A stretch of 64,000 nucleotides of DNA from Alphaproteobacteria bacterium (GTDB lineage Bacteria; Pseudomonadota; Alphaproteobacteria; UBA7985; JAUIBT01). This document shows, in pieces, positions 6,229 through 57,930 of this stretch (positions are counted from its first letter, which is position 1; each line of letters begins with the position of its first letter). The notes beneath the pieces were generated by a model. The model ran no database searches and was not told the DNA's origin. It saw only the letters and a program-made list of their open reading frames with translations. Position numbers and translations under genes: made by a program. Location of the stretch: assembly GCA_030432195.1 (NCBI GenBank), contig JAUIHE010000001.1:4634-68633 (forward strand). Reading direction: 5' to 3'.

Positions 6229-7551
6229 ATGCAAGAAAACCCAGATACGCAGGAAAACCTAGACGAGGACCTGCCAGAGTTGTCCACGGGGCAACGTCGT
6301 ATCATCACGACCGAGAGTATTATTCTGGGCTTCTTGCTGGGGGCCGTATTGATTTGGTGGGCCTTTCCTTGGAAAGACGGCCATATATCCCACGGTCCGT
6401 TGCACCTAAGCGCCACCGTAGAGACCCTGTTGGTCGCCCTCTATTTGACCATGGTGGTTGCCTACTGCGGCTTTAAAATGCCGACCTTCTTCACCCGCTC
6501 TAACTTTTGGTCAACCTTTGCTTTGGTGGTGTTTGCAGGCCACATCTCCCTGTTCTTTGATAGCTTTGCTGTCATCTTGCTGCTATCGACAGGAATTGTT
6601 TTCTTCCCAACCCAAAAAGCAAATAATTTCAACGCTTTCGCGGTAAAAGCGATCGCGGCGTTTGCCGCTTTGACCGTCGGTGGCGGTTTCTATTTGGGTG
6701 AACTATGGGGGCTTCCCTACTACATCACGGCGGGACTGGACACGCCTAACGCGGGCTGGCCCTTGCTGGTGGTCTTGACGCCCTACAGCATTTTTCTGGG
6801 CCTAATCGCTGGCGCTTTCTTCCCTGTTCAAATCCAAAAAGCGCCATTTGACCGCCAGCAAGCCTTGGCGGGGCTGGAGTTCGTCGTCGCGCTGTTGGCC
6901 ATCATCATCACTCACAACCCCTTCTTTTGTATCGGCCTGTTGTTCATCTACTCCGCGGTATCGCCTTTATGGTACGGCATGCGCGGCCACAAGGACACGC
7001 TGGATTTGGTTCACCGTACCGCTCACGAGCTGACCGACGGCGGCTTGAACGCGCTGGGTCTCATCATGCTGGCCGTGCTTATCCAACAGATCCCTGGTAT
7101 GGGGGAGATGATTACCGCCAAACTGCACGGCCTGGGTCTGTTCGTTGGCGCGGCAATCTCCTCACCTTTCGCCGGCGCCATGGCCGCCATGCCCGCCAGC
7201 CTAGACGAGTTTTATTTGAACTTGTCGCTGATTATGCTGGGTGCACCCATGTTTGTATTCTCGTCGCTGGTGGCAATCGTGGTCTTCACCAACCAGATTC
7301 GCCGCGAGGAACTGCCAAGCTGGATGCTTTTGCCCGCCAAGGCAATCGGCTTTCGTGGCCCCTATGTGCCCGAGGCAATTGCCTATACCTTGCTGGTTAT
7401 CCCAATGAACCTTGGCTTGGCAATCTTGGTCATCTTGGCAAATCAGATGGGCTGGTTTGCTGATCTTGGGGCCATGCTGGGCATGGACGAGGTCTTGCAG
7501 GCGGCGATTGCAGAAGCAGCCAACATGGCCGGTGACGCCGCCGCTCACTAA
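6229..7551 (+). CDS. polytopic membrane protein of unknown function (about 11 TM, acidic N-terminal cytoplasmic tail)
   Basis: 440 aa. The N-terminus, MQENPDTQENLDEDLPELSTGQRR, is followed by many hydrophobic helices. The 5' half has markedly lower GC (about 50%) than its neighbours. There is an AT-rich upstream region (TATATAAC) and a downstream intrinsic terminator. I cannot place it in a family. Confidence 0.6.
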   Translation: MQENPDTQENLDEDLPELSTGQRRIITTESIILGFLLGAVLIWWAFPWKDGHISHGPLHLSATVETLLVALYLTMVVAYCGFKMPTFFTRSNFWSTFALVVFAGHISLFFDSFAVILLLSTGIVFFPTQKANNFNAFAVKAIAAFAALTVGGGFYLGELWGLPYYITAGLDTPNAGWPLLVVLTPYSIFLGLIAGAFFPVQIQKAPFDRQQALAGLEFVVALLAIIITHNPFFCIGLLFIYSAVSPLWYGMRGHKDTLDLVHRTAHELTDGGLNALGLIMLAVLIQQIPGMGEMITAKLHGLGLFVGAAISSPFAGAMAAMPASLDEFYLNLSLIMLGAPMFVFSSLVAIVVFTNQIRREELPSWMLLPAKAIGFRGPYVPEAIAYTLLVIPMNLGLAILVILANQMGWFADLGAMLGMDEVLQAAIAEAANMAGDAAAH

Positions 7552-7688: not shown

Positions 7689-7731
7689 AGGCGACCAAGC
7701 AGGGCATGCAGCCCTTTGCGGTCGCTTTTTT
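7689..7731 (+). terminator. Rho-independent terminator downstream of the unknown membrane-protein gene
   Basis: GGCGACC-aagca-GGGC-atgca-GCCC-tttgc-GGTCGC followed by TTTTTTG. This is a GC-rich interrupted stem followed by a T-tract. Confidence 0.6.
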
Positions 7732-7813
7732 GCTATTGTCGCAGGTGATCCTGTGGTGCAACCCTGCAACATCGCCAGCCCCCGCGCCGCATTGGCCAGT
7801 TGAAAGATCCAAG

Positions 7814-9124
7814 ATGAACGCCGCTACACCATCAGCCAACAGCGCCTGGTCTACCGTCATCACGATTGGCGCGCTGTTGTGGGGCGCCTCAATCGCCTTG
7901 GTCGGCTCGACCCTACTGGGGATCGTGCTAGCGCTGCAAATGGAGAGCCGGGGCTACGATACGACGGTCACTTCTGTAGTTATGGCGGGCAATTTCGCGG
8001 GCTTCCTGGTCGGCGCGCTCTATGCCACGACGCTCATCAACACCGTTGGGCACATTCGCGCCTTTGCCATTTTTGCGACCCTTCAGTCGGCGTTGTTCAT
8101 CGCCCACCCCATCCTGGACCATTGGGCCATATGGGCGGTTTTGCGCCTGCTGTCTGGAGCCTGCCTTGCGGGCATCTTTACCGCGGTCGAAAGCTGGATG
8201 AACGACCGCACACCGACCGAGAGCCGCGGCACCGTTCTGGGCATCTATGTCATTACCAACTACCTGGCTCAGATCGGCGGGCAACTGCTGGTCAACGTTT
8301 GGGACTTCAGCCGTATTGAGCCCTTTATCATCGCCTCCATTTTGGGCTCACTGTCCCTCATTCCCGTCGCCATGACGCGACTCTACCCGCCCGAATTGAG
8401 CGACGTGCAACGCATGGGCCTAGTCGAGCTGTACCAAGCCTCACCAACCGCCATCGCGGGCACGCTTGGAAGCGGCGTTCTGGTGGGCTCAACGCTGTCT
8501 TTGGGCGCGGTCTTTGCGCAGCGGATCGGGCTTAGCGTTTACGAGACTTCTTTGTTCACAGGGTCGATCTTGGTCGGCGGGATGTTGTTTTCCTACCCCG
8601 CAGGGCGCTTGGCCGATATGCTCGACCGGCGCTATATCATGATGGGGCTGTTGGCGGTCGCGATTGCGGTATCGTTTGCCATCGTCACCAGTGCGACGGC
8701 TTTGCCGAACTTTTGGCTCTTGCTGGCACTCGTGGCTCTATTTGGTGGCGCGCAAGCCTCGATCTATCCCATTTCGGTTGCGCAGGCCTTCGACCATATC
8801 GCGCCGCAAAAGTACATCTCCGCCGCATCGGGCCTGTTGATCGTCTTTTCCGTCGGCGCAACCTTGGGGCCGGTCCTTGCTTCTTTCGTGATGCGTTGGC
8901 AGGCGGCCGGGCTGTTTTTGACCACCGGCATCTTGTCCGCCTTCATGCTGCTGTTCATCTTCTATCGCACCATGGAGCGCGAAGCAGCGCCAGAAGAAAT
9001 GCAAGAGAGCGTCACCTTCCTGCCGACCACTCCGGGAGCCTTCGAGTTGCTGGACCTCAGCGAAGACGTGCAGGATTTCGACGATCATTTCGACGAAAAG
9101 CTGGAGAGCATCGACGACGACTAA
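7814..9124 (+). CDS. MFS transporter
   Basis: The track ORF 7706..9124 begins inside the upstream terminator. The in-frame ATG at 7814 (MNAATPSANSAWSTVITIGALLWG...) starts the first TM segment. There are 12 predicted TM segments and an acidic C-terminal tail. Confidence 0.75.
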   Translation: MNAATPSANSAWSTVITIGALLWGASIALVGSTLLGIVLALQMESRGYDTTVTSVVMAGNFAGFLVGALYATTLINTVGHIRAFAIFATLQSALFIAHPILDHWAIWAVLRLLSGACLAGIFTAVESWMNDRTPTESRGTVLGIYVITNYLAQIGGQLLVNVWDFSRIEPFIIASILGSLSLIPVAMTRLYPPELSDVQRMGLVELYQASPTAIAGTLGSGVLVGSTLSLGAVFAQRIGLSVYETSLFTGSILVGGMLFSYPAGRLADMLDRRYIMMGLLAVAIAVSFAIVTSATALPNFWLLLALVALFGGAQASIYPISVAQAFDHIAPQKYISAASGLLIVFSVGATLGPVLASFVMRWQAAGLFLTTGILSAFMLLFIFYRTMEREAAPEEMQESVTFLPTTPGAFELLDLSEDVQDFDDHFDEKLESIDDD

Positions 9125-9166
9125 CCCAGCCAGGCAGTGGGGCGTCGGGCCGCCATTATCCAAACC

Positions 9167-9470
9167 GTCGCCGCCACCGCGGCTCGGGGTTTGCAGGTTT
9201 GTTATCCGCAAATCCACCGTCGCCGCCACCGCGGCTCGGGGTTTGCAGGTTTGTTATCCGCAAATCCACCGTCGCAATCAAGGCCGATTGCTCGGGGTTT
9301 GCAGGTTTGTTATCCGCAAATCCACCGTCGCCGCCCCAGCGGCTCGGGGTTTGCAGGTTTGTTATCCGCAAATCCACCGTCGCAATCCAGGCCGATTGCT
9401 CTGGGTTTGCAGGTTTGTTATCCGCAAATCCACCGTCGCAATCCAGGCCGATTGCTCTGGGTTTGCGCTA
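9167..9470. repeat. tandem array of 5.5 copies of a 52-56-bp repeat with a 40-bp conserved hairpin core
   Basis: The core CTCGGGGTTTGCAGGTTTGTTATCCGCAAATCCACCGTCG occurs five times perfectly and once truncated. Copies are joined by two alternating linkers, CCGCCACCGCGG (12 bp) and CAATCMAGGCCGATTG (16 bp). Both linkers are themselves palindromic. Confidence 0.85.
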
Positions 9471-10301
9471 GAGCCCCAAAACGTGCCGCATCGTATAGAG
9501 CCCCGCAGGCTGGCCAGGCAGCCACAAAGCACCTTTGACCGCCCCAGCGGCAAAAATTGAGCGGCTGGTCGCACGGTGCGTCAGCTCGATCCGCTCTTGT
9601 TCGCCCACCAACATGACGGTGTGCTCACCTGCCACGTCACCGCCGCGCAGTGTCGCGAACCCGATCTCCCCGTCAGGACGCGCACCAACGTGACCGTCGC
9701 GCGCATAGCACGCCACCTCGGCCAAGTTTTGCTGCCGCCCTTTGGCCGCCGCCTCCCCCAGCATAAGCGCCGTGCCAGAAGGCGCATCGACCTTCTTGTT
9801 GTGGTGCATTTCCACGACCTCAATATCAAAACTGGGGTCCAGTGCTTTGGCGGCCTGCTCAACCAGCAGGGCCAACAGATTGACGCCTAAGCTGGTGTTG
9901 GCCGCCCAAACGATGGCCACGTGCTTGCTCGCCTCATGCACGGCCTGCTGAGTGGCTTCGGTGAGGCCGGTGGTGCCCAAGAACAGCGGCGTGCCCGTCT
10001 CGACAGCCAGAGCCAGGGTCTCGTCCGTCGCGGTAAAGTGCGAAAAATCGATCACCACGTCCGAGGCTTCAAAGACGCTCCGCCGATCATCGGTCGCGTT
10101 AATCCCCACCGCCGGTAGATTGGCAAGGCTAGCAAGGTCTTGGCCGATGACCTCTGAACCGGCGCGCTCAGCCCCCCCGGCCAAAACGGCGCCGGTCTGA
10201 CCAACAATAGTTTGGATCAGCATCCGGCCCATGCGCCCGCCGGTGCCCATCAGCCCAAGCTTGGCGGGATTGGCGGCGGTGGCTGTGTTTGTTGTCGTCA
10301 T
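9468..10301 (-). CDS. dapB: 4-hydroxy-tetrahydrodipicolinate reductase
   Basis: 277 aa. It has an N-terminal NAD(P)-binding GxxGxxG (LMGTGGRMGRM), the conserved EVVEMHHNKKVDAPSGTA block, and a strong ribosome-binding site (AGGAGAAAACCATG). Confidence 0.9.
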   Translation of the reverse strand: MTTTNTATAANPAKLGLMGTGGRMGRMLIQTIVGQTGAVLAGGAERAGSEVIGQDLASLANLPAVGINATDDRRSVFEASDVVIDFSHFTATDETLALAVETGTPLFLGTTGLTEATQQAVHEASKHVAIVWAANTSLGVNLLALLVEQAAKALDPSFDIEVVEMHHNKKVDAPSGTALMLGEAAAKGRQQNLAEVACYARDGHVGARPDGEIGFATLRGGDVAGEHTVMLVGEQERIELTHRATSRSIFAAGAVKGALWLPGQPAGLYTMRHVLGL

Positions 10302-14243: not shown

Positions 14244-15276
14244 ACTAAGGGCCCCCCGCTTTTGGTCTGAAGGCGGCTGGCAATCCCGCGCGCTTCAGCC
14301 TCTGGCCTTGGCCTATGGGGGTCTGGCGCGCGGCTATCGCCTGCTAAAGCCTAAGGTGCAAGCCCCACTTCCGCTGGTCTGCGTGGGCAACTACACGGCC
14401 GGCGGTGCAGGCAAAACGCCGGTCGTTCGCTCGCTAGTCGAGGGTCTTGAAACGCGCGGACACCGGCCTGTGGTTGTCTCAAAGGGCTACGGCGGCCGCC
14501 TGAAAGGGCCGCTGTGGGTTGATCCGCTAAAACACACCGCCGCAGAGGTGGGGGACGAACCTTTGCTGTTGGCCAGCGACTGCCCGGTGATGGTCGCGCG
14601 CTCCCGCGCCCAGGGTATGGCCTTCTTGCGCCAAGAACTGGCAAAGGCGCTGCCCGCGCACCATGACCTCATCGTGATGGACGATGGGCTACAAAATCCC
14701 TCGCTGCGTCCTGATTTGGCCTTCGCCGTCGTGGACGCTGGCACCGGTATTGGCAACGCCCGCACCCTGCCCGCTGGCCCTTTGCGCGAACCGCTGGCGC
14801 TGGGGTTTGAGCGCAGCCAGGCGGTAATTGTCCTGCGAACGGGCCAGGAGGCCGACCATCCGAGCCTGGCCGCAGTGATGCATCAAGCCCAGGCTCAAGA
14901 CCTCAAATTGCTGCACGGCCACACCTATCTGCAAGAAGCTCCCGCCCGGCCCTGGGTGCTGGCCTTTTGCGGCATCGCCCGGCCGGCCAAGTTCTTCCGC
15001 TCTCTGACCGAGGCAGGCTATCGGCTGACAGATACGCAGCCCTTTGGCGATCACCAGCCCTTTCCCGAGGCCGCGCTGGGCAATCTGTACAGGCGCGCGC
15101 GGGCGGATGAGGCTCAGCTCGTTACCACGGAAAAGGACTGGTTGCGTCTGCCCGAAGTCTGGCGCGAGCGGGTTCACTTCGTTCGCTTGCACATGGAATG
15201 GGAACGCGATCAAGCATTAGACCTGATCGAAGTCGCCATAGCGCGTTGGACCCAGAAACGTGCCGCAAACGCCTAG
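14237..15276 (+). CDS. lpxK: tetraacyldisaccharide 4'-kinase
   Basis: There is an ATGA overlap with the waaA stop at 14237-14243. The N-terminus, MVELRAPRFWSEGGW, and the P-loop GNYTAGGAGKTP match LpxK. The track ORF from 14104 is an over-extension inside waaA. Confidence 0.85.
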
Positions 15277-15307
15277 GGCGCTTGCCCGGGCTTTGCTCTG
15301 GGGCGCC

Positions 15308-15331
15308 CACGAACAACCGGCCGTGTTCGTG
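15308..15331. terminator. GC-rich hairpin between the convergent lpxK and ptsN genes (possible terminator, no clear U-tract)
   Basis: CACGAACA-accggccg-TGTTCGTG is a perfect 8-bp inverted repeat. Confidence 0.3.
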
Positions 15332-15473
15332 CCAAAATACGGAAAGATGACTTTGCGGTGAAACCACGCGCCTACAGCAGGTTGATTTGCAACAACTGGG
15401 CAACACCGGCTGTTGAGTAAGGGCTCTGGCGCGTGCCAAGACCCGGCGCTTTAACGGCCGCAGGCCCCGCCTA

Positions 15474-18896: not shown

Positions 18897-21731
18897 TCAC
18901 AGCTCGAAGTCAGACCCCAAATAGACCTGCCGCACCCGTTCATCCTGCACGATTTCGGACGGCTCACCCTGCATCAGAACGCGGCCGTCGTAAATAATGT
19001 AGGCACGATCGACCACATTCAGCGTATCGCGGACATTGTGATCAGTAATCAGCACGCCAATGCCACGCTGCTTGAGCTGCCCAACCAGGCTGCGAATGTC
19101 GCCGACGGCGATTGGATCGACACCGGCGAAGGGCTCGTCCAACAAGATGTATTGGGGATTGCTGGCCAAAGAGCGCGCAATTTCCGTGCGTCGCCGCTCG
19201 CCGCCCGACAGGGCCAAAGCGTTGACAGACCGCAAATGCGTGATGGAAAATTCGGCCAGCAGCTCTTCCAGTCGGGCCTTGCGCTTCCTGCGATCGGACT
19301 GCACCACCTCCAGCGCTGCCATGATGTTTTGCTCCACCGTCAGGCCGCGGAAGATCGACGCTTCTTGCGGCAGGTACCCGAGCCCGAACTTGGCGCGTCG
19401 GTACATGGGCAGGGTGCTGACGTTGCGCCGGTTGATCCCGACGTACCCTTTGTCCGCCTGTATTAAGCCGCAAACGATATAAAAGCTGGTGGTCTTGCCC
19501 GCACCGTTGGGACCCAGCAGGCCTACGACCTCGCCGGGCCGGATGCCGATGTTGACATCGTGCAGCACCTTGCGTTTGCCGAAAGATTTCTGCAAATTCA
19601 GCGCCACCAGGCCGGGGAAATTGCGATCCAGCGTCGGCAAGGGCGGCAGATTTGAGCGGCGCGCAGGCCGGGCGGGCTTGGCGCTAGCCCGGCGCGGGGC
19701 ATCAATAATCAGCCTTTGCTTTGGCGCCGCGGTTGGGTCGCTGCCAGGCGCTGCGCCGTCCTGCGGTTTTGTCGTTGGAGCGGCGGCGCCCTGGGCTTTG
19801 GTGGGCGCCCCGGTGTTGGGTGCCCCGGTGTTGGGTGCCCCGTTGATCCGAGCCTCGGCGCTGGGCTTGTCAGGGACAGCGGGTGTTGCCGCAGACGCTC
19901 CGGCGTCGCCAGCATTTGCGGTGGTTGGCGCCGGCGCGGCCGCTTGAGCCGGTATCGTGTGCGCCTCGGGCTTGGGTCCAGATTTGGGCAAAAGCTTCTT
20001 GGTTGGCGGCAGAGGCGGCGGCGGCGTTGCCCCCTCGTCCGTTGCCTGCAGAGCCCCTTTGGTTGAGCCAGACTTTGCGGCGCTTGGACTGTTCGAAGCT
20101 GCCCCAGTTTCGCGCTTTTCCTCAGGGCCGCTGGCGGCAGCGCTTGCTGCGGAAGCATCGCCGCCCGCCTCTGGCGCGGCCGGAGCCGGAGCCGCATCAG
20201 GGCTCCCTACAGGGCTGGCAGCCTTGGTCTTGGAGCCCCCTTGCCGGTCCGTGGACCCGGCACCTGGCGCTCGGTCGGACCGTGCATCGGCGCCGCCAGC
20301 GTCTAGCCTTTGAGGGTTGTTGTCGGCTTTAGCCTTGCGGTCATCATCACGCACGCTGCCGCGCTCATCGTCGTGGTCTTTGGGTTTGGCGAACCACGAC
20401 AGCCAACCGCCCCCTGCCTTGCGGGGTTTACTGGCCTTCTGGGGCTTACTGGCCTTCTGGGGCTTACTGGCCTTCTTTTTCGCAGTTTTTGCGCCGGACG
20501 GCTTGACCTCATCCTGCGCGCGGAGCGGCGTTGAAGCCATGCCCTCCGCCTTTTGATCGTCCGCTAGGTCTCGGCTTTTCGGATTTTCGCTGCGCAGTTG
20601 CGGCTCATTGGTCAACTGAGGCTGTTGGGCCGGTGCGGGCCGGTCCGGGGCTGCCCGCTCTGGGGCTGCCCGCTCTGGGGCTGCCTCGTGCTGAGGGGCG
20701 CGCTGCGCTGCAACTCGGCGCGCAAATCGACCACCGCCGGAAGCGGTCGGGCGCGCCGGTGAAGGTGTTTCGAGGGCCTGTTCACGCTGGGCCTGTTCAC
20801 GCTGGGCCTGTTCACGCTGGGCCTGTTCGCGTTGAGTCTGTTCACGCTGCACTTGGGCTTGTTGCGCGAGCGCGCGCTGTTCGGCTTCCAATTGCTGGCG
20901 CTGCTGCTGAGCCTGCTCGCGGCGAACGCGCTCTTGATGAGCCCGCGCACGTTGGGCACGCTCCCATTCCAGCCGCTGACGGTCTTCTTGCGCACGCTGA
21001 GCCTGCTCCCATTGCAGACGCTCTTGCTCGGCGCGGGCCCGTGCCGCTTGCTCTTGCTTGGCCCGATTTTGGGCAGCTTGGCGTTGGGCCTGTTCGCGTT
21101 GGGCCTGTTCGCGCTGGGCCTGCAATTGGGCCTGTTCACGTTGATTTAACAGCCGTGGTGCGCGCGGACCTGCTCCGGGCGCACCACCAACGCCCGGACC
21201 CCGATTGGCCTGTGGACTATTTTGGGGATTTTGGCGCGGCCTTGGTCGTGCCTGGCCCTGCTGCGGCGGACGCCCGGGTTGCGGCCCAGCTTGTCGCGCA
21301 TGCGCTTCTTGTTGCCCAGCCCCGGCGCCAAACAGCCCCTTGGCACGATCCCAAAGCCCGGGCCCGGCGGGCCGATTGGGCGCTGAGCGCTGCACACGCC
21401 CAGGCTGGCCCGGCACCGATCGCGCGCCCTGTTCCCAATTTTGAACCGGATAGCGCACCTGGTTTCGGGTCGGCGCACCTGGTTGGTTACCTTGCTGGTT
21501 TCTTGGCTGGTTTCTTGGCTGGTTTCTTGGCTGGCTGCCGGCTTGGTTTCCTAGCTGACCTCCCGGCTGGCTTCCAACTGGCCGCCCCGCCGGGCCCGGC
21601 GCTGGCCTCGGTTCATCAGCCGCGCGCCGCTCCGCAACGCTGATGGGCTCTTCAAAACTCATCCGTAACGGGTTGCTGGTATTCCGGTCCAAAGCGCGTT
21701 CTGGTTCCCGGTTATAGCGCTTGTCGGCCAT
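18897..21731 (-). CDS. lptB: LPS export ABC-transporter ATPase LptB (canonical C-terminal 236 aa), in frame with a roughly 700-aa repeat-rich disordered N-terminal region
   Basis: The C-terminus is a typical LptB: GPNGAGKTT, LSGGERRR, LLDEPFAGVDP. The frame is open from the ATG at 21731, 8 nt after the lptA stop, through a Q/R/E/A/P-rich low-complexity region encoded by several different perfect tandem DNA repeats. The only canonical-length LptB start would be a GTG at 19607, and it has no ribosome-binding site. Confidence 0.6.
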   Translation of the reverse strand: MADKRYNREPERALDRNTSNPLRMSFEEPISVAERRAADEPRPAPGPAGRPVGSQPGGQLGNQAGSQPRNQPRNQPRNQQGNQPGAPTRNQVRYPVQNWEQGARSVPGQPGRVQRSAPNRPAGPGLWDRAKGLFGAGAGQQEAHARQAGPQPGRPPQQGQARPRPRQNPQNSPQANRGPGVGGAPGAGPRAPRLLNQREQAQLQAQREQAQREQAQRQAAQNRAKQEQAARARAEQERLQWEQAQRAQEDRQRLEWERAQRARAHQERVRREQAQQQRQQLEAEQRALAQQAQVQREQTQREQAQREQAQREQAQREQALETPSPARPTASGGGRFARRVAAQRAPQHEAAPERAAPERAAPDRPAPAQQPQLTNEPQLRSENPKSRDLADDQKAEGMASTPLRAQDEVKPSGAKTAKKKASKPQKASKPQKASKPRKAGGGWLSWFAKPKDHDDERGSVRDDDRKAKADNNPQRLDAGGADARSDRAPGAGSTDRQGGSKTKAASPVGSPDAAPAPAAPEAGGDASAASAAASGPEEKRETGAASNSPSAAKSGSTKGALQATDEGATPPPPLPPTKKLLPKSGPKPEAHTIPAQAAAPAPTTANAGDAGASAATPAVPDKPSAEARINGAPNTGAPNTGAPTKAQGAAAPTTKPQDGAAPGSDPTAAPKQRLIIDAPRRASAKPARPARRSNLPPLPTLDRNFPGLVALNLQKSFGKRKVLHDVNIGIRPGEVVGLLGPNGAGKTTSFYIVCGLIQADKGYVGINRRNVSTLPMYRRAKFGLGYLPQEASIFRGLTVEQNIMAALEVVQSDRRKRKARLEELLAEFSITHLRSVNALALSGGERRRTEIARSLASNPQYILLDEPFAGVDPIAVGDIRSLVGQLKQRGIGVLITDHNVRDTLNVVDRAYIIYDGRVLMQGEPSEIVQDERVRQVYLGSDFEL

Positions 21732-32602: not shown

Positions 32603-34629
32603 AAGAAGCCAAGGCTGCCGGCTTTTACGGCGTTACAGACCTGCCAACCCAGTTTTTCGTCCGGGATCGGCCCGGCCACCACGCGAAAACCCTGCTTTCG
32701 CCCGATTGTCACCGGTTCTAGAATTGCCTCCAGGCCGCCCAGAATACTGGGTTCAGACTTCAGCGCGGAAATCCAAAGGTCGGCGCCTTCCTTGCTGGTC
32801 TCCACGGTGCCAACCCACAGGACAAACGGTACGCCTTGCGGCTTGGGCCCAACCAAAATCATCATGCCCTCAGGGGAGGGTTGGAAGGAGGCATTGCCAA
32901 CAGGCTGAGCGGAAGGCGCGCTACCGACAGGCGCGGCGGTCGAGCGATTTGCCGGATAAGTCGGCTGTATGCCTGCAAGGTTTTGGATTTGATTCTGGCT
33001 TTGCGGCCGTAGGGGGCCCAAGCGCTGGCCATTTTGTCCCTGGCCATTTTGACCCTGGCCATTTAGTCCGGCTGCGCCCGTCGCCTGCTGGGGCTGAACC
33101 TGCTGGGGCTGAACCTGCTGGGGCTGAACCGTTAGGGGCTGTGGCACGGGCAACGAAAGGTCGCCATCGTCGGCCTGGTCGCCTCCTTGGCTACCCAACA
33201 GCGGTGTCGCCCCTGGGGCGCCAAGCAGCGCAGTGCCGGATGCCCCTTGAAGCGGGCTTTCAGACAGAGCCGCTGCCATGCTGCCGCTGCCTGCCGATGA
33301 TGCCCCAGTTAGGTTCTGGTTGCCGCTATCAGCGAGCCGCGGGGCGGGGATCGCTGGGACCGTCTCCAGATCAGCTGCGGCACCGGTTTGATTTGCCGCG
33401 GGCTGGCCGTTGGATTGCAGCAACTGCGTATCAACATTGCCCAATTGCAGGCCGCTGAAATCCAGAGCGCCCTTGGCAAGCAAGCTGGGATTAATCAACG
33501 GAGGGCTGCCGTCGAAGGTCTGGAAGCTGTTGGCCTGATTTGCAGCCTGGTTTCCAGCTTGATTTGCAGCCTGATTTGAAGCCTGGCCAGAGGCCTGCCC
33601 GTCGTCCAGCGGGATTGGGGCGGGCACAAGCTGTGAGGCCTGACCGCCTGCCCCCGCCGTCTTTTGCTCGGGCAATCGGGGCACATTCACCGTGCCGGAT
33701 CCGGGCGTAACCAATGGCGCTGAGGGGCTGCTTGTGCCCGCAGCAGAGGACTGAGGCAAGGCCTGGTCTTGCAAGGGCTCGGTGTCCAAGATTTCGCGCT
33801 GAGCCACCAGTCGTGGCAGCTTGGGCAATTTGGCCTGTACGGCCGGATCGTTCAGATTGGCCTCCAGGACGCCCCGGGCTTTCAAATCCGCCACAAAAGC
33901 ATCGGCCGCGTCGTTCCCACCCAACTTTGCCTGCTGCAAAAAGGCCAGAGCCAAGCCTTCGTCTTGCGCCAAACCCAAGCCGCGCAAATAAAACTGCCCC
34001 ATGGCGTAGTGCGCTTGCGGCAAGCCCTGCAAGGCGGCCACAAGCACCAGTCCCAGAGCTTCATCCGTGTCGGCCTCGATACCGCGGCCCGAAAAATAGG
34101 CCAGACCCAGGTTGAATTGCGCGATGGCATTGTTCTTTTTGGCGGCCTGCGTCCAAAGTTCGACAGCCTTTTCTTGGCTCTCGATTACGCCTCGCCCTTC
34201 GGCATAGAGCAGACCCAAGTTGGTCTGCGCTTCGGGCAGGCCACCTTGTGCCGCGCGCTGATAATAGCTGACGGCGAGCAGGGGATCGGGGGCAATGCCC
34301 GGCGCGCCGCTCTCGAATACCAGTGCAAGGCCGTATTGAGCCTCTACGCTGCCTTGCTCGGCCAGCTCGCTCCAAATCGCCACGGCTTCATTGATCCGGC
34401 CTGCTTCCATTTCGGCCAAGCCGTCTTGAAAACTAGCGCCCGAGTTGGCCGCTGGCGCTTGTTGGGCAAAGCTGTGCCCGCCGGCAGCCCCCAAGATCAC
34501 CGCGCCCACCACCAGCGCGCCCACCACCAGCGCGCCCACCACAAGCACGTCGGCAATGACCTTGGCCAGCCTTGCGCGCATCGAAGCAAGCGGGACTAAA
34601 ATGGATGTACGGTCAGAAGGGCCGTTCAT
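32581..34629 (-). CDS. membrane-anchored Sel1-repeat protein with a long Q/N/P-rich linker and a C-terminal SPOR (peptidoglycan-binding) domain
   Basis: There is an N-terminal TM segment (VIADVLVVGALVVGALVVGAVIL), then at least five Sel1-like repeats (AQYGLALVFESG..., AQTNLGLLYAEGRG..., AQFNLGLAYFSGRG..., AHYAMGQFYLRGLG...). A low-complexity linker follows with NQAANQAGNQAANQ, QPQQVQPQQVQPQQ and GQGQNGQGQNGQ repeats. The C-terminus is SPOR-like (FVLWVGTVETSKEGADLWISAL...GFRVVAGPIPDEKLGWQVCN). Confidence 0.7.
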   Translation of the reverse strand: MNGPSDRTSILVPLASMRARLAKVIADVLVVGALVVGALVVGAVILGAAGGHSFAQQAPAANSGASFQDGLAEMEAGRINEAVAIWSELAEQGSVEAQYGLALVFESGAPGIAPDPLLAVSYYQRAAQGGLPEAQTNLGLLYAEGRGVIESQEKAVELWTQAAKKNNAIAQFNLGLAYFSGRGIEADTDEALGLVLVAALQGLPQAHYAMGQFYLRGLGLAQDEGLALAFLQQAKLGGNDAADAFVADLKARGVLEANLNDPAVQAKLPKLPRLVAQREILDTEPLQDQALPQSSAAGTSSPSAPLVTPGSGTVNVPRLPEQKTAGAGGQASQLVPAPIPLDDGQASGQASNQAANQAGNQAANQANSFQTFDGSPPLINPSLLAKGALDFSGLQLGNVDTQLLQSNGQPAANQTGAAADLETVPAIPAPRLADSGNQNLTGASSAGSGSMAAALSESPLQGASGTALLGAPGATPLLGSQGGDQADDGDLSLPVPQPLTVQPQQVQPQQVQPQQATGAAGLNGQGQNGQGQNGQRLGPLRPQSQNQIQNLAGIQPTYPANRSTAAPVGSAPSAQPVGNASFQPSPEGMMILVGPKPQGVPFVLWVGTVETSKEGADLWISALKSEPSILGGLEAILEPVTIGRKQGFRVVAGPIPDEKLGWQVCNAVKAGSLGFFCKVRAL

Positions 34630-52727: not shown

Positions 52728-56591
<3,864 letters not shown>

Positions 56592-57409: not shown

Positions 57410-57660
57410 AACTGCGCTGGCTCCGCTTGTGCTAGTTCAAGCCGCTTGGCAGAAACGTCACTGCGCAAAACGGTCGTCGGGCAAGCCTAGTGCTGATCTT
57501 CATCGCCTGGCAAGCCTTGATCCCCCCAGCCCGTGCGAGTCTGTGAGCAAGTCTAGGCCTAAGGGCGCAGCGCGCGGGCTTTGCTCTGCCTATTTGATAG
57601 TGCCGCAAATGCACCTAGGGAATCTTTGGCGCAATCCAGGGCGATTGCTCGGGCTTTGCT

Positions 57661-57930
57661 TTAACGCGGATTGCAGTCTGGGCAGGGCTTATTTGCCTCA
57701 TGGTAAAGCTGACAATTGGGGCACTGAACCAAGGTCTTGGCCTGCACCATGTTGGGATTGGCTTGCCCTTTCGAGCGCGCCTGGCGGCTTGACCCTGGCG
57801 CTCTGCGCGCTTGTTCGCGATGGGCGGGCTTGCCGCGCCGCGCTTGATCCAAGCGGCCTAAAACGCGAAAAAGACTCCAGAGCCCAAAAAGGATTAAGGC
57901 AAAAGATACCAGCTTACCGAAAGAAAACAT
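57661..57930 (-). CDS. small membrane-anchored zinc-ribbon protein (hypothetical)
   Basis: 89 aa. It has an N-terminal TM helix (LVSFALILFGLWSLFRVL), a basic linker and a C-terminal CPNC-x10-CPDC motif. It lies directly downstream of sppA on the same strand. Confidence 0.45.
   Translation of the reverse strand: MFSFGKLVSFALILFGLWSLFRVLGRLDQARRGKPAHREQARRAPGSSRQARSKGQANPNMVQAKTLVQCPNCQLYHEANKPCPDCNPR

Follow-up and report, generated by a model that had tools for sequence, protein, structure and literature searches.

Results

Architecture of the dapB–MFS spacer

The window analysed here, a 64,000-nt stretch of contig JAUIHE010000001.1, belongs to an uncultured alphaproteobacterium; in the databases, its closest relatives are MAGs that carry the label Alphaproteobacteria or Rhodospirillaceae. 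The lineage is rich in short tandem repeats. Within the window, a gene for an MFS transporter on the plus strand (7706–9124; its 436-aa orthologues place the likely true start near 7814) converges on dapB on the minus strand (9468–10301), which encodes 4-hydroxy-tetrahydrodipicolinate reductase (TIGR00036, 4.5e-74); both neighbours are housekeeping genes. The spacer between them measures 343 nt (9125–9467), is bounded by the MFS stop codon (TAA, 9122–9124) and the dapB stop codon (9468–9470, CTA on the plus strand), and contains a tandem array of six head-to-tail modules (9154–9466) whose family-consensus orientation is that of the minus strand, i.e. dapB-sense. TRF detects repetition in the array at periods of 52, 56 and 108 nt and counts about 5.2 copies; at 108 nt, the higher-order period, the match is 97%. 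A 37-nt core, GGGTTTGCAGGTTTGTTATCCGCAAATCCACCGTCGC, is present in five exact copies, at 9187, 9239, 9295, 9347 and 9403; outside the array it occurs nowhere in the window, and not once in 100 shuffles. These 37 nt are the perfectly common stretch, which extends to 42 nt if one G/T polymorphism is tolerated. A sixth core is truncated to 13 nt (GCTCTGGGTTTGC, 9454–9466), with which the array comes to within 1 nt of the dapB stop, and the MFS end consists of a degenerate half unit (9154–9183) that matches the reference at 67%.

Two types of palindromic linker join the cores, A (GCCGC-N4-GCGGC) and B (GCAATC-N6-GATTGC), in the order A, A, B, A', B', B'. Counting a module as outer arm, linker palindrome and outer arm gives six modules, all on the minus strand. 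Module 1, proximal to the MFS gene (9159–9194), comprises a degenerate arm TCCAAACC, the A palindrome GCCGCCACCGCGGC at 9170–9183 and the arm GGTTTGC. Module 2 (9208–9246) reads GCAAATCC-ACCGTC-A palindrome (9222–9235)-TCGG-GGTTTGC, and module 3 (9260–9302) carries the B palindrome GCAATCAAGGCCGATTGC at 9274–9291. The A' palindrome of module 4 (9316–9354), GCCGCCCCAGCGGC at 9330–9343, differs from A in the loop only. Module 5 (9368–9410) contains the B' palindrome GCAATCCAGGCCGATTGC at 9382–9399, with a TCTG variant that is common to the last two units of the array, and module 6 (9424–9466), proximal to dapB, has its B' palindrome at 9438–9455; read on the minus strand, the arm GCAAACCC of this last module begins 1 nt past the dapB stop. 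The modules are separated by five identical 13-nt spacers, AGGTTTGTTATCC (minus strand; 9195–9207, 9247–9259, 9303–9315, 9355–9367 and 9411–9423), a sequence that forms the loop of the short hairpin described below and whose homologue in the single copies is their A-rich tail, GGCAATATCAAACAG. The two 108-nt blocks of the array differ by three substitutions, all of them in apical loops.

The tandem array between the convergent genes, which the initial annotation had reported from the letters alone, is thus confirmed by both TRF and exact core counts, but its details need adjustment: instead of six perfect 40-bp cores we find the five full 37-nt cores and the 13-nt remnant of a sixth. The two palindromic linkers were recognised correctly, but they do not alternate strictly. 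Likewise, the array does abut the dapB stop, at a distance of 1 nt, but it does not fill the entire spacer, since some 30–39 nt on the MFS side (9125–9158/9163) are unique, non-repeat sequence.

The copy number and the order of the units derive from one assembly. An identical dapB followed by 57 nt of the array is also present in two independent Logan assemblies (SRR28113955 and SRR28113954), both of which break off at that point, as assemblies are expected to do where a repeat exceeds their k-mer length; these contigs (L001/L002) support the unit next to dapB as well as a branch point within the core. The array is real and far beyond chance. Its periods (52, 56 and 108 nt, 5.2 copies) can be set against the definition of a minisatellite as head-to-tail repeats of 10–100 nt, and as a head-to-tail repeat of ~54 nt it is formally a minisatellite. 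Regular spacing and partially palindromic repeats are also features of CRISPR arrays, for which we looked for unique spacers of ~26–72 nt and cas genes nearby. Here, in contrast, the "spacers" are 13 nt long and identical or, if the units are divided differently, 14 and 18 nt long and of two types; none is unique, the array has no leader, and no cas genes lie within ~8 kb. The earlier opinion that the array is not CRISPR-like, which had been based on short and repeated linkers, therefore holds. Readings as an integron attC, dif or iteron array were discarded on spacer identity, on the presence of GTTATCC rather than GTTRRRY, and on the housekeeping context.

Related single copies in the window

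A search with the exact core alone had suggested a unique sequence. The 20-mer core GGTTTGTTATCCGCAAATCC has no match in 185,579 species-representative genomes or in viral contigs; one JGI metagenome match (n = 1) was rejected as chance, lying inside AT-rich repeat-protein genes. A 22-mer of the family consensus likewise found nothing in viral contigs, blastn of a single copy (E3, below) found nothing in plasmids, and the array translated in its open frames had no counterpart in a collection of 5.8 billion proteins. Family copies were found instead by nhmmer profiles and a signature scan. The first single copy, E1, lies on the plus strand at 1680–1767, 1 nt after the gshB stop codon (TAG, 1677–1679), in an inserted region that probably extends to ~1808. 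The second, E3, lies on the minus strand at 57571–57660, 1 nt after the TAA stop of an 89-aa ORF (57661–57930, minus strand) that encodes a hydrophobic helix and a CxxC..CxxC zinc ribbon. A profile built from the array units matches both of them (57593–57659, E 7.6e-5, and 1682–1748, E 0.004), as well as a copy in the relative L006 (6836–6891, E 0.015), and in the reverse search a single-copy profile matches the array units at E values of 1.5e-5 to 5e-4.

Pairwise comparisons agree with this picture. E1 aligns with E3 at 85% identity across 68 nt (E 2.7e-12), and ungapped comparison of E1, E3 and the L006 copy with one another gives 79–83% over 72 nt. Of the 55 positions aligned between the array B unit and E3, 47 are identical, and this alignment contains one gap of 12–13 nt and one of 2 nt. 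The signature GC[AG][AC]A[GC]CC-N15-60-[AT]TTTGCG occurs at three loci in the window where 0.1 would be expected, and a scan of ~870 kb of other alphaproteobacterial loci returned the L006 copy as the only real member. A further locus at 15250–15362, which reaches an nhmmer E of only about 0.5 and was judged by eye against the consensus alignment, appears to hold degenerate members: an internally deleted minus-strand copy (15250–15297) that overlaps the lpxK stop and, head-to-head with it, a partial plus-strand copy (15310–15362) with a third apical palindrome, CACGAACA-N8-TGTTCGTG. The density of the family is three to four loci in the 64-kb window and one in 20.8 kb of a relative. The initial annotation had proposed a search for further copies as the check for a dispersed REP-like family, and by profile this check comes out positively: the 64-kb window holds three or more loci, and a distant relative adds another.

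Read along the strand of the upstream gene, the consensus of the family is stop, 1 nt, GCAAAGCCCGAGCAATCGCCCTsGATTGyGCCAAAGATTC....GGTGCATTTGCGGCAATATCAAAyAG, then GCAAAGCCC. A member thus starts with the stop codon, 1 nt, the arm GCAAAGCCC and an apical palindrome (usually GCAATC-N6-GATTGC), and continues with ~15 nt, the arm GGTGCATTTGCGG, an A-rich tail of ~15 nt and a second copy of the first arm. A single unit is a nested double palindrome of ~75 nt.

The single copies also bear on the idea that the array is a DNA-level array of protein-binding sites, such as a putative DnaA-titrating cluster. Each 13-nt spacer contains TTATCCGCA, which departs from the DnaA box TTATCCACA at a single position; these motifs all point the same way and follow one another at intervals of 52 or 56 bp. 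The array has five copies of TTATCCGCA and one of TTATCCAAA, and TTATCCGCA occurs nowhere else in the window. However, none of the boxes in the array fits the strict consensus TTATNCACA, TTATCCGCA agreeing with the relaxed consensus only, and ~75 boxes of the relaxed consensus are scattered across the window. As TTATCCGCA is missing from the family members E3 and L006, it looks like a by-product of the variant that was amplified, and we consider a DnaA-titrating role extremely improbable.

Distribution and conservation in relatives

To place the copies in a comparative frame, we considered relatives whose neighbourhoods have nucleotide identities to the window of 77.5% (L004), 78.4% (L084), 80.6% (L088), ~74% (L005/L087) and 72.8% (L006). 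No element occupies the dapB–MFS spacer of L004, which is 10 nt long, or that of L005/L087, at 44 nt; in L006, L091 and L092 the spacer measures ~175 nt and holds one element and a degenerate second one; and in L084–86 it measures 164 nt and is occupied by an unrelated array (16 nt × 6.9). The gshB–comM spacer, 157 nt long in the window with E1 inside it, is empty and far shorter in L088 (15 nt) and L091 (12 nt). Presence of the family is patchy, and species-level relatives have zero or one copy after dapB. Comparison of filled and empty gshB sites revealed no consistent TIR or TSD, the right-hand boundary being blurred by divergence. Where the element is present it is well preserved: the elements of the window are 79–82% identical to the L006 element, compared to 72.8% for flanking DNA. 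That the copies are more alike across genomes than the surrounding genes implies either sequence constraint or movement.

Could the array instead be a stand-alone neutral minisatellite, generated by locus-specific slippage of an ancestral dapB terminator-like hairpin and unconnected to any dispersed family? The spacer does behave as a hot spot of tandem repetition, as illustrated by the unrelated array of L084–86, short tandem repeats are numerous in this lineage, and the spacers of the closest relatives are tiny. Such slippage would, however, not account for E1 and E3, which are unlinked in the window, 83–85% identical to each other and both alignable to array units, and whose sites are empty in relatives; purely local origin is thus quite improbable. 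On the combined evidence of profiles, signature and layout, we consider it likely that the array arose by tandem amplification of one member of a dispersed palindromic family that is REP-like in the broad sense. The family is previously undescribed, whereas the kind of element is already known.

A fixed register relative to stop codons

In all four loci at which it can be read (4/4), the element starts exactly 1 nt after a stop codon and in sense orientation: after the TAG of gshB, the TAG of dapB in the window, the TAG of dapB in L006 and the TAA of the 89-aa ORF. Its sense orientation relative to the abutted stop ties the array to dapB, on the minus strand, and not to the MFS mRNA. Because the register is fixed in all four loci, and because copies of 79–82% identity are found in genomes that are ~73% identical, we leave open a more specific, and in our estimate rather unlikely, reading in which the family is a stop-codon-associated 3' module of ~75 nt, set with single-nucleotide precision. 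Under such a reading, the element might be mobile and placed by a mechanism directed at stop-codon contexts (CTCTAG or TTAA); alternatively, a hairpin in the footprint of the terminating ribosome might modulate termination, ribosome rescue or the decay of the mRNA. With its six modules, the array behind dapB would on this view amplify that effect.

We also considered read-through and coding. Translated in the frame of the upstream stop, the copies would yield similar peptides (..ARAIALDCAKDS.GAFA..), yet the variable sites distribute as 10/5/6 over the codon phases, the synonymous to non-synonymous counts (11/25) are equalled by those of the antisense frame (10/23), and the unit lengths of 52 and 56 nt break the frame. 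A coding role was accordingly rejected.

Predicted folding of the array and of single copies

The short hairpin proposed initially, with an 8-bp stem and a 13-nt loop, is predicted as claimed, at -12.9 kcal/mol on the plus strand versus -10.4 kcal/mol on the minus strand. There is, however, an alternative pairing, in which an arm pairs with its other neighbour and encloses the linker palindrome, giving a hairpin of 44–48 nt. For the B type, represented by module 5, this long hairpin is predicted at -18.5 kcal/mol (plus) versus -19.6 (minus), and for the A type, represented by module 2, at -22.4 (plus) versus -26.1 (minus). The long hairpins are thus more stable than the short hairpin with which they compete, and the minus strand is equal or better. 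Folding of the whole spacer gives -157.2 kcal/mol on the plus strand (z = -5.0 versus shuffles) and -162.6 kcal/mol on the minus strand (z = -7.1), and these folds on both strands indicate that there is no plus-strand preference. The suggestion that a G-U pair favours the plus strand is therefore valid for the short hairpin, by 2.5 kcal/mol, but does not extend to the long hairpins or to the whole array. The associated proposal of a role in the 3' UTR of the MFS mRNA is not supported, given that the stronger, long hairpins are equal or better on the minus strand and that the other copies are sense to the gene whose stop they abut.

The single copies present a different picture, folding no better than shuffled sequence (z = -2.3, +0.9 and -0.4). 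The alifold consensus contains one compensatory pair. Taken together, these two observations mean that, at the level of prediction, RNA structure is well supported only for the streamlined units of the array and not for the single copies. The apical position is held by three different palindromes (A, B and CACGAACA-N8-TGTTCGTG), which hints that it is the hairpin rather than the sequence that matters there.

Searches for transcriptional signals and known RNAs were negative. There is no terminator-like site, i.e. a G+C-rich hairpin followed by a U tract, on either strand of 9125–9467, so that the terminator role that had been suggested is not supported, and no promoter-like site was detected in the spacer. 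Rfam returned nothing at gathering score in the window, and only chance-level matches (E of at least 0.6) around the array, E1 and E3; the small-RNA array that had been offered as another interpretation thus finds no counterpart among the Rfam small RNAs. These results should be weighed against the idea of a functional structured RNA processed from the MFS or dapB transcript, whether as a small RNA derived from the 3' UTR or as a tandem cis-regulatory element. Such a function would sit well with the stable folds predicted for the array, the maintenance of the sequence across genomes whose genes are ~73% identical, and the fixed position relative to stop codons, but not with the lack of an Rfam match even at E ≤ 10, single copies that fold like shuffles, predicted loops as conserved as the stems, the lack of promoter- or terminator-like signals, and the absence of the element from close relatives. 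We regard it as highly improbable.

Discussion

Comparison with known repeat systems

If the array is an amplified member of a dispersed REP-like family, its closest comparison is with the REP, BIME and REPIN elements of Enterobacteria and Pseudomonas. These are short imperfect palindromes, extragenic and dispersed, often in 3' UTRs between convergent genes, and sometimes clustered with two palindrome variants and fixed linkers, with a patchy distribution between relatives (PMC2817692, PMC3333891). The family resembles them in these respects, with its nested palindromes at four intergenic sites, i.e. short imperfect palindromes in extragenic DNA. By analogy, the RNA-level effects are also likely to be the same, namely a 3' exonuclease barrier, attenuation and ribosome stalling within 15 nt of a stop, as summarised in PMC5082802.

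Taken further, this resemblance would make the array a bona fide REP/BIME cluster, mobilised by a RAYT (Y1 HUH) encoded elsewhere and built by repeated transposase-mediated insertion beside existing copies. In addition to being dispersed, extragenic, palindromic and patchy among relatives, the copies are conserved above their flanking genes, as would be expected under transposase recognition, and the orientation-specific insertion 3' of TAGN/TAAN without target duplication is like IS200/IS605-type single-strand transposition, the mechanism of which is described in PMC3333891 and PMC6006769. The family shares with MITEs and IS200/IS605-derived elements a small, non-coding and structured nature, an insertion/empty-site polymorphism, and a placement that is orientation-specific, 3' of a short motif and free of an obvious target duplication. 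In contrast to these elements, however, neither terminal inverted repeats nor ends could be defined for it, and a cognate transposase was not identified: none is encoded within ~8 kb of the array, and no such domain is present in the 17 ORFs that were scanned around the array and elsewhere.

The tags and the arrangement of the palindromes provide a second point of comparison. The unpaired GTAG recognised by RAYT, a feature of REPs, is not found beside any palindrome of the array, E1 or E3. CGTC-tagged REPs, which predominate in Alphaproteobacteria, come closer: as described by Di Nocera et al. (2013, PMC3733652), they have stems of 8–9 bp starting with A-T pairs, loops of 4–5 nt and a CCA tail, and form mostly head-to-head dimers (PMC3733652). 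The present family resembles them in its alphaproteobacterial host, in having no transposase nearby, and in the unpaired CGTC that directly precedes both array palindromes, but differs in its stems, which are 5–6 bp, G-C-rich and without A-T pairs at the base, in its loops of 4 or 6 nt and in its TCG/TCT tails. The single copies, moreover, carry TTTGGC or similar in place of CGTC. As to arrangement, the REPs of BIMEs and REPINs are mutually inverted and alternate, head-to-tail dimers being rare (PMC2817692, PMC3733652), whereas the modules of the array are all direct (6/6 head-to-tail), and the only head-to-head case in the family is the degenerate 15.3-kb locus. REPs usually number >100 copies per genome (PMC2817692). 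Compared to a REP, the unit of the family is also longer, at ~75 nt, and every copy starts 1 nt after a stop. With these differences in arrangement, tag and stem, and without a transposase gene within ~8 kb, a bona fide REP/BIME cluster seems unlikely to us. The label REP/BIME-type given by the initial annotation is thus appropriate in the broad sense of a dispersed palindromic repeat, but not by the specific characters, the array being head-to-tail, devoid of GTAG and at odds with the CGTC rules.

Mycobacterial MIRUs are head-to-tail intergenic repeats of ~50 nt that adjoin stop codons at several loci, grow by slippage or unequal recombination and lie mostly within operons. The array is like these elements, and like VNTRs generally, in being head-to-tail, ~50 nt in period, intergenic and adjacent to a stop codon. 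It is unlike MIRUs in that it lies between convergent genes and has no sequence relationship to them.

Proposed origin and function

We propose the following origin for the array as an amplified member of the dispersed family. The first 9–13 nt of a single copy recur at its end as a built-in direct repeat, and slipped-strand mispairing or unequal recombination between such direct repeats, favoured by the hairpins, could have driven expansion. The form that expanded would have been a shortened derivative with a 12–13-nt internal deletion, giving rise to the six head-to-tail modules behind dapB, in the course of which one apical palindrome may have been swapped for another (A versus B). A 108-nt A+B block would then have been duplicated (its copies are 97% identical), and the last B' unit duplicated once more. 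The internal differences of the array fit such stepwise duplication. The expansion itself may be neutral.

With regard to function, each of the two convergent transcripts would encounter a series of stable stem-loops without U tracts. In analogy with REP/BIME elements, such stem-loops might hold up 3' exonucleases or serve as road-blocks to transcription; PMC5082802 describes REP hairpins as protecting upstream mRNA from 3' exonucleases and attenuating transcription, and as stalling ribosomes when a REP lies within 15 nt of a stop codon. In the dapB mRNA, the first hairpin is predicted to start 2 nt past the stop and would thus lie in the footprint of the terminating ribosome, where it might dampen termination or expression. 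By the same analogy, any function of the array, as 3'-end stem-loops with possible interference with termination, is probably modest. Any such function must be dispensable, since close relatives manage with a spacer of 10–44 nt.

The finding contributes a further family to the small palindromic repeats of intergenic DNA, which are numerous but poorly catalogued, and illustrates a route by which a palindromic element may turn into a minisatellite, namely through a copy that ends in a repeat of its own first arm. In practical terms, the array breaks short-read assemblies and would make a natural strain-typing (VNTR) marker for the population. The only features that could raise the family above the ordinary, and that are of specialist interest, are the exact stop register and the conservation above that of the surrounding genes: if these were to hold genome-wide, the family would provide a clean natural system for studying whether an action on terminating ribosomes and mRNA 3' ends is the reason why REP-like hairpins are placed or retained.

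Repeat expansion in the dapB-MFS spacer

To the array of head-to-tail hairpin repeats that separates the convergent MFS and dapB genes there corresponds, in the orthologous spacer of a relative whose DapB is 88% identical, an unlike tandem array. At locus L084 (2541-2651) it consists of 6.9 copies of a 16-nt unit with the consensus GCTTTGGGGCCCTGAC and begins within the final dapB codons; loci L085 and L086 have the same arrangement. The presence of a different array there shows that the spacer has expanded independently in two lineages. We also observed that a 13-mer inside dapB, CCGCCCCAGCGGC (9539-9551), is the same as the A' palindromic linker of the array (9331-9343), some 200 nt away, an identity that could be due to chance or to template-switch conversion.

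Degenerate copies of the family

In the palindrome GCAAACGCC-TAG-GGCGCTTGC (15250-15297), the loop holds the stop codon of lpxK, TAG (15274-15276). Because this palindrome is a member of the REP-like family with an internal deletion, lying on the strand opposite lpxK, the terminal codons of the gene appear to derive from the element. Downstream of E1, the single copy that follows the gshB stop, the stretch 1768-1808 contains GGATAACAAA, which is the spacer variant of the array; CTCTAG recurs there, and so does CGCAAAGCC. These sequences suggest a decayed second family unit, so that E1 could originally have been dimeric.

The sole metagenome match to a 20-mer of the array core, in L003 (Ga0214923_10065555), is a chance one inside two adjoining AT-rich genes (285-2419). 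These encode repeats of about 22 aa, W.LS.NPNAI.LLEQNPDKI.W, and their products resemble repeat proteins of giant viruses or those associated with eukaryotes.

Open reading frames and short tandem repeats

The 89-aa ORF at 57661-57930 (minus strand), which has a hydrophobic helix at its N terminus and a CPNC..CPDC zinc ribbon at its C terminus, probably encodes a small membrane protein that has escaped annotation; its only match, to Ribosomal_L32p, is weak and sub-threshold (E 0.003). A 440-aa ORF between two MFS genes (6229-7551, plus strand), syntenic in all relatives, gave no match in Pfam or NCBIfam.

Within long ORFs of the window (19785-21575, 33025-33585 and 54953-55068, among others), many tandem repeats keep the reading frame, their periods being 12, 15, 18 or 24 nt. 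A 944-aa ORF, for instance, carries them in its N-terminal 700 aa and has a C-terminal ABC ATPase as its sole Pfam match; a Sel1-repeat protein and an AMP-binding protein of 1287 aa contain others. Short tandem duplications seem to arise readily in this lineage. The closest relative has an intergenic tandem repeat (L004, 781-863; 5.9 copies of the 14-nt unit CCTGTCTGGGGGCA), which again indicates that the clade commonly carries short tandem repeats between genes.
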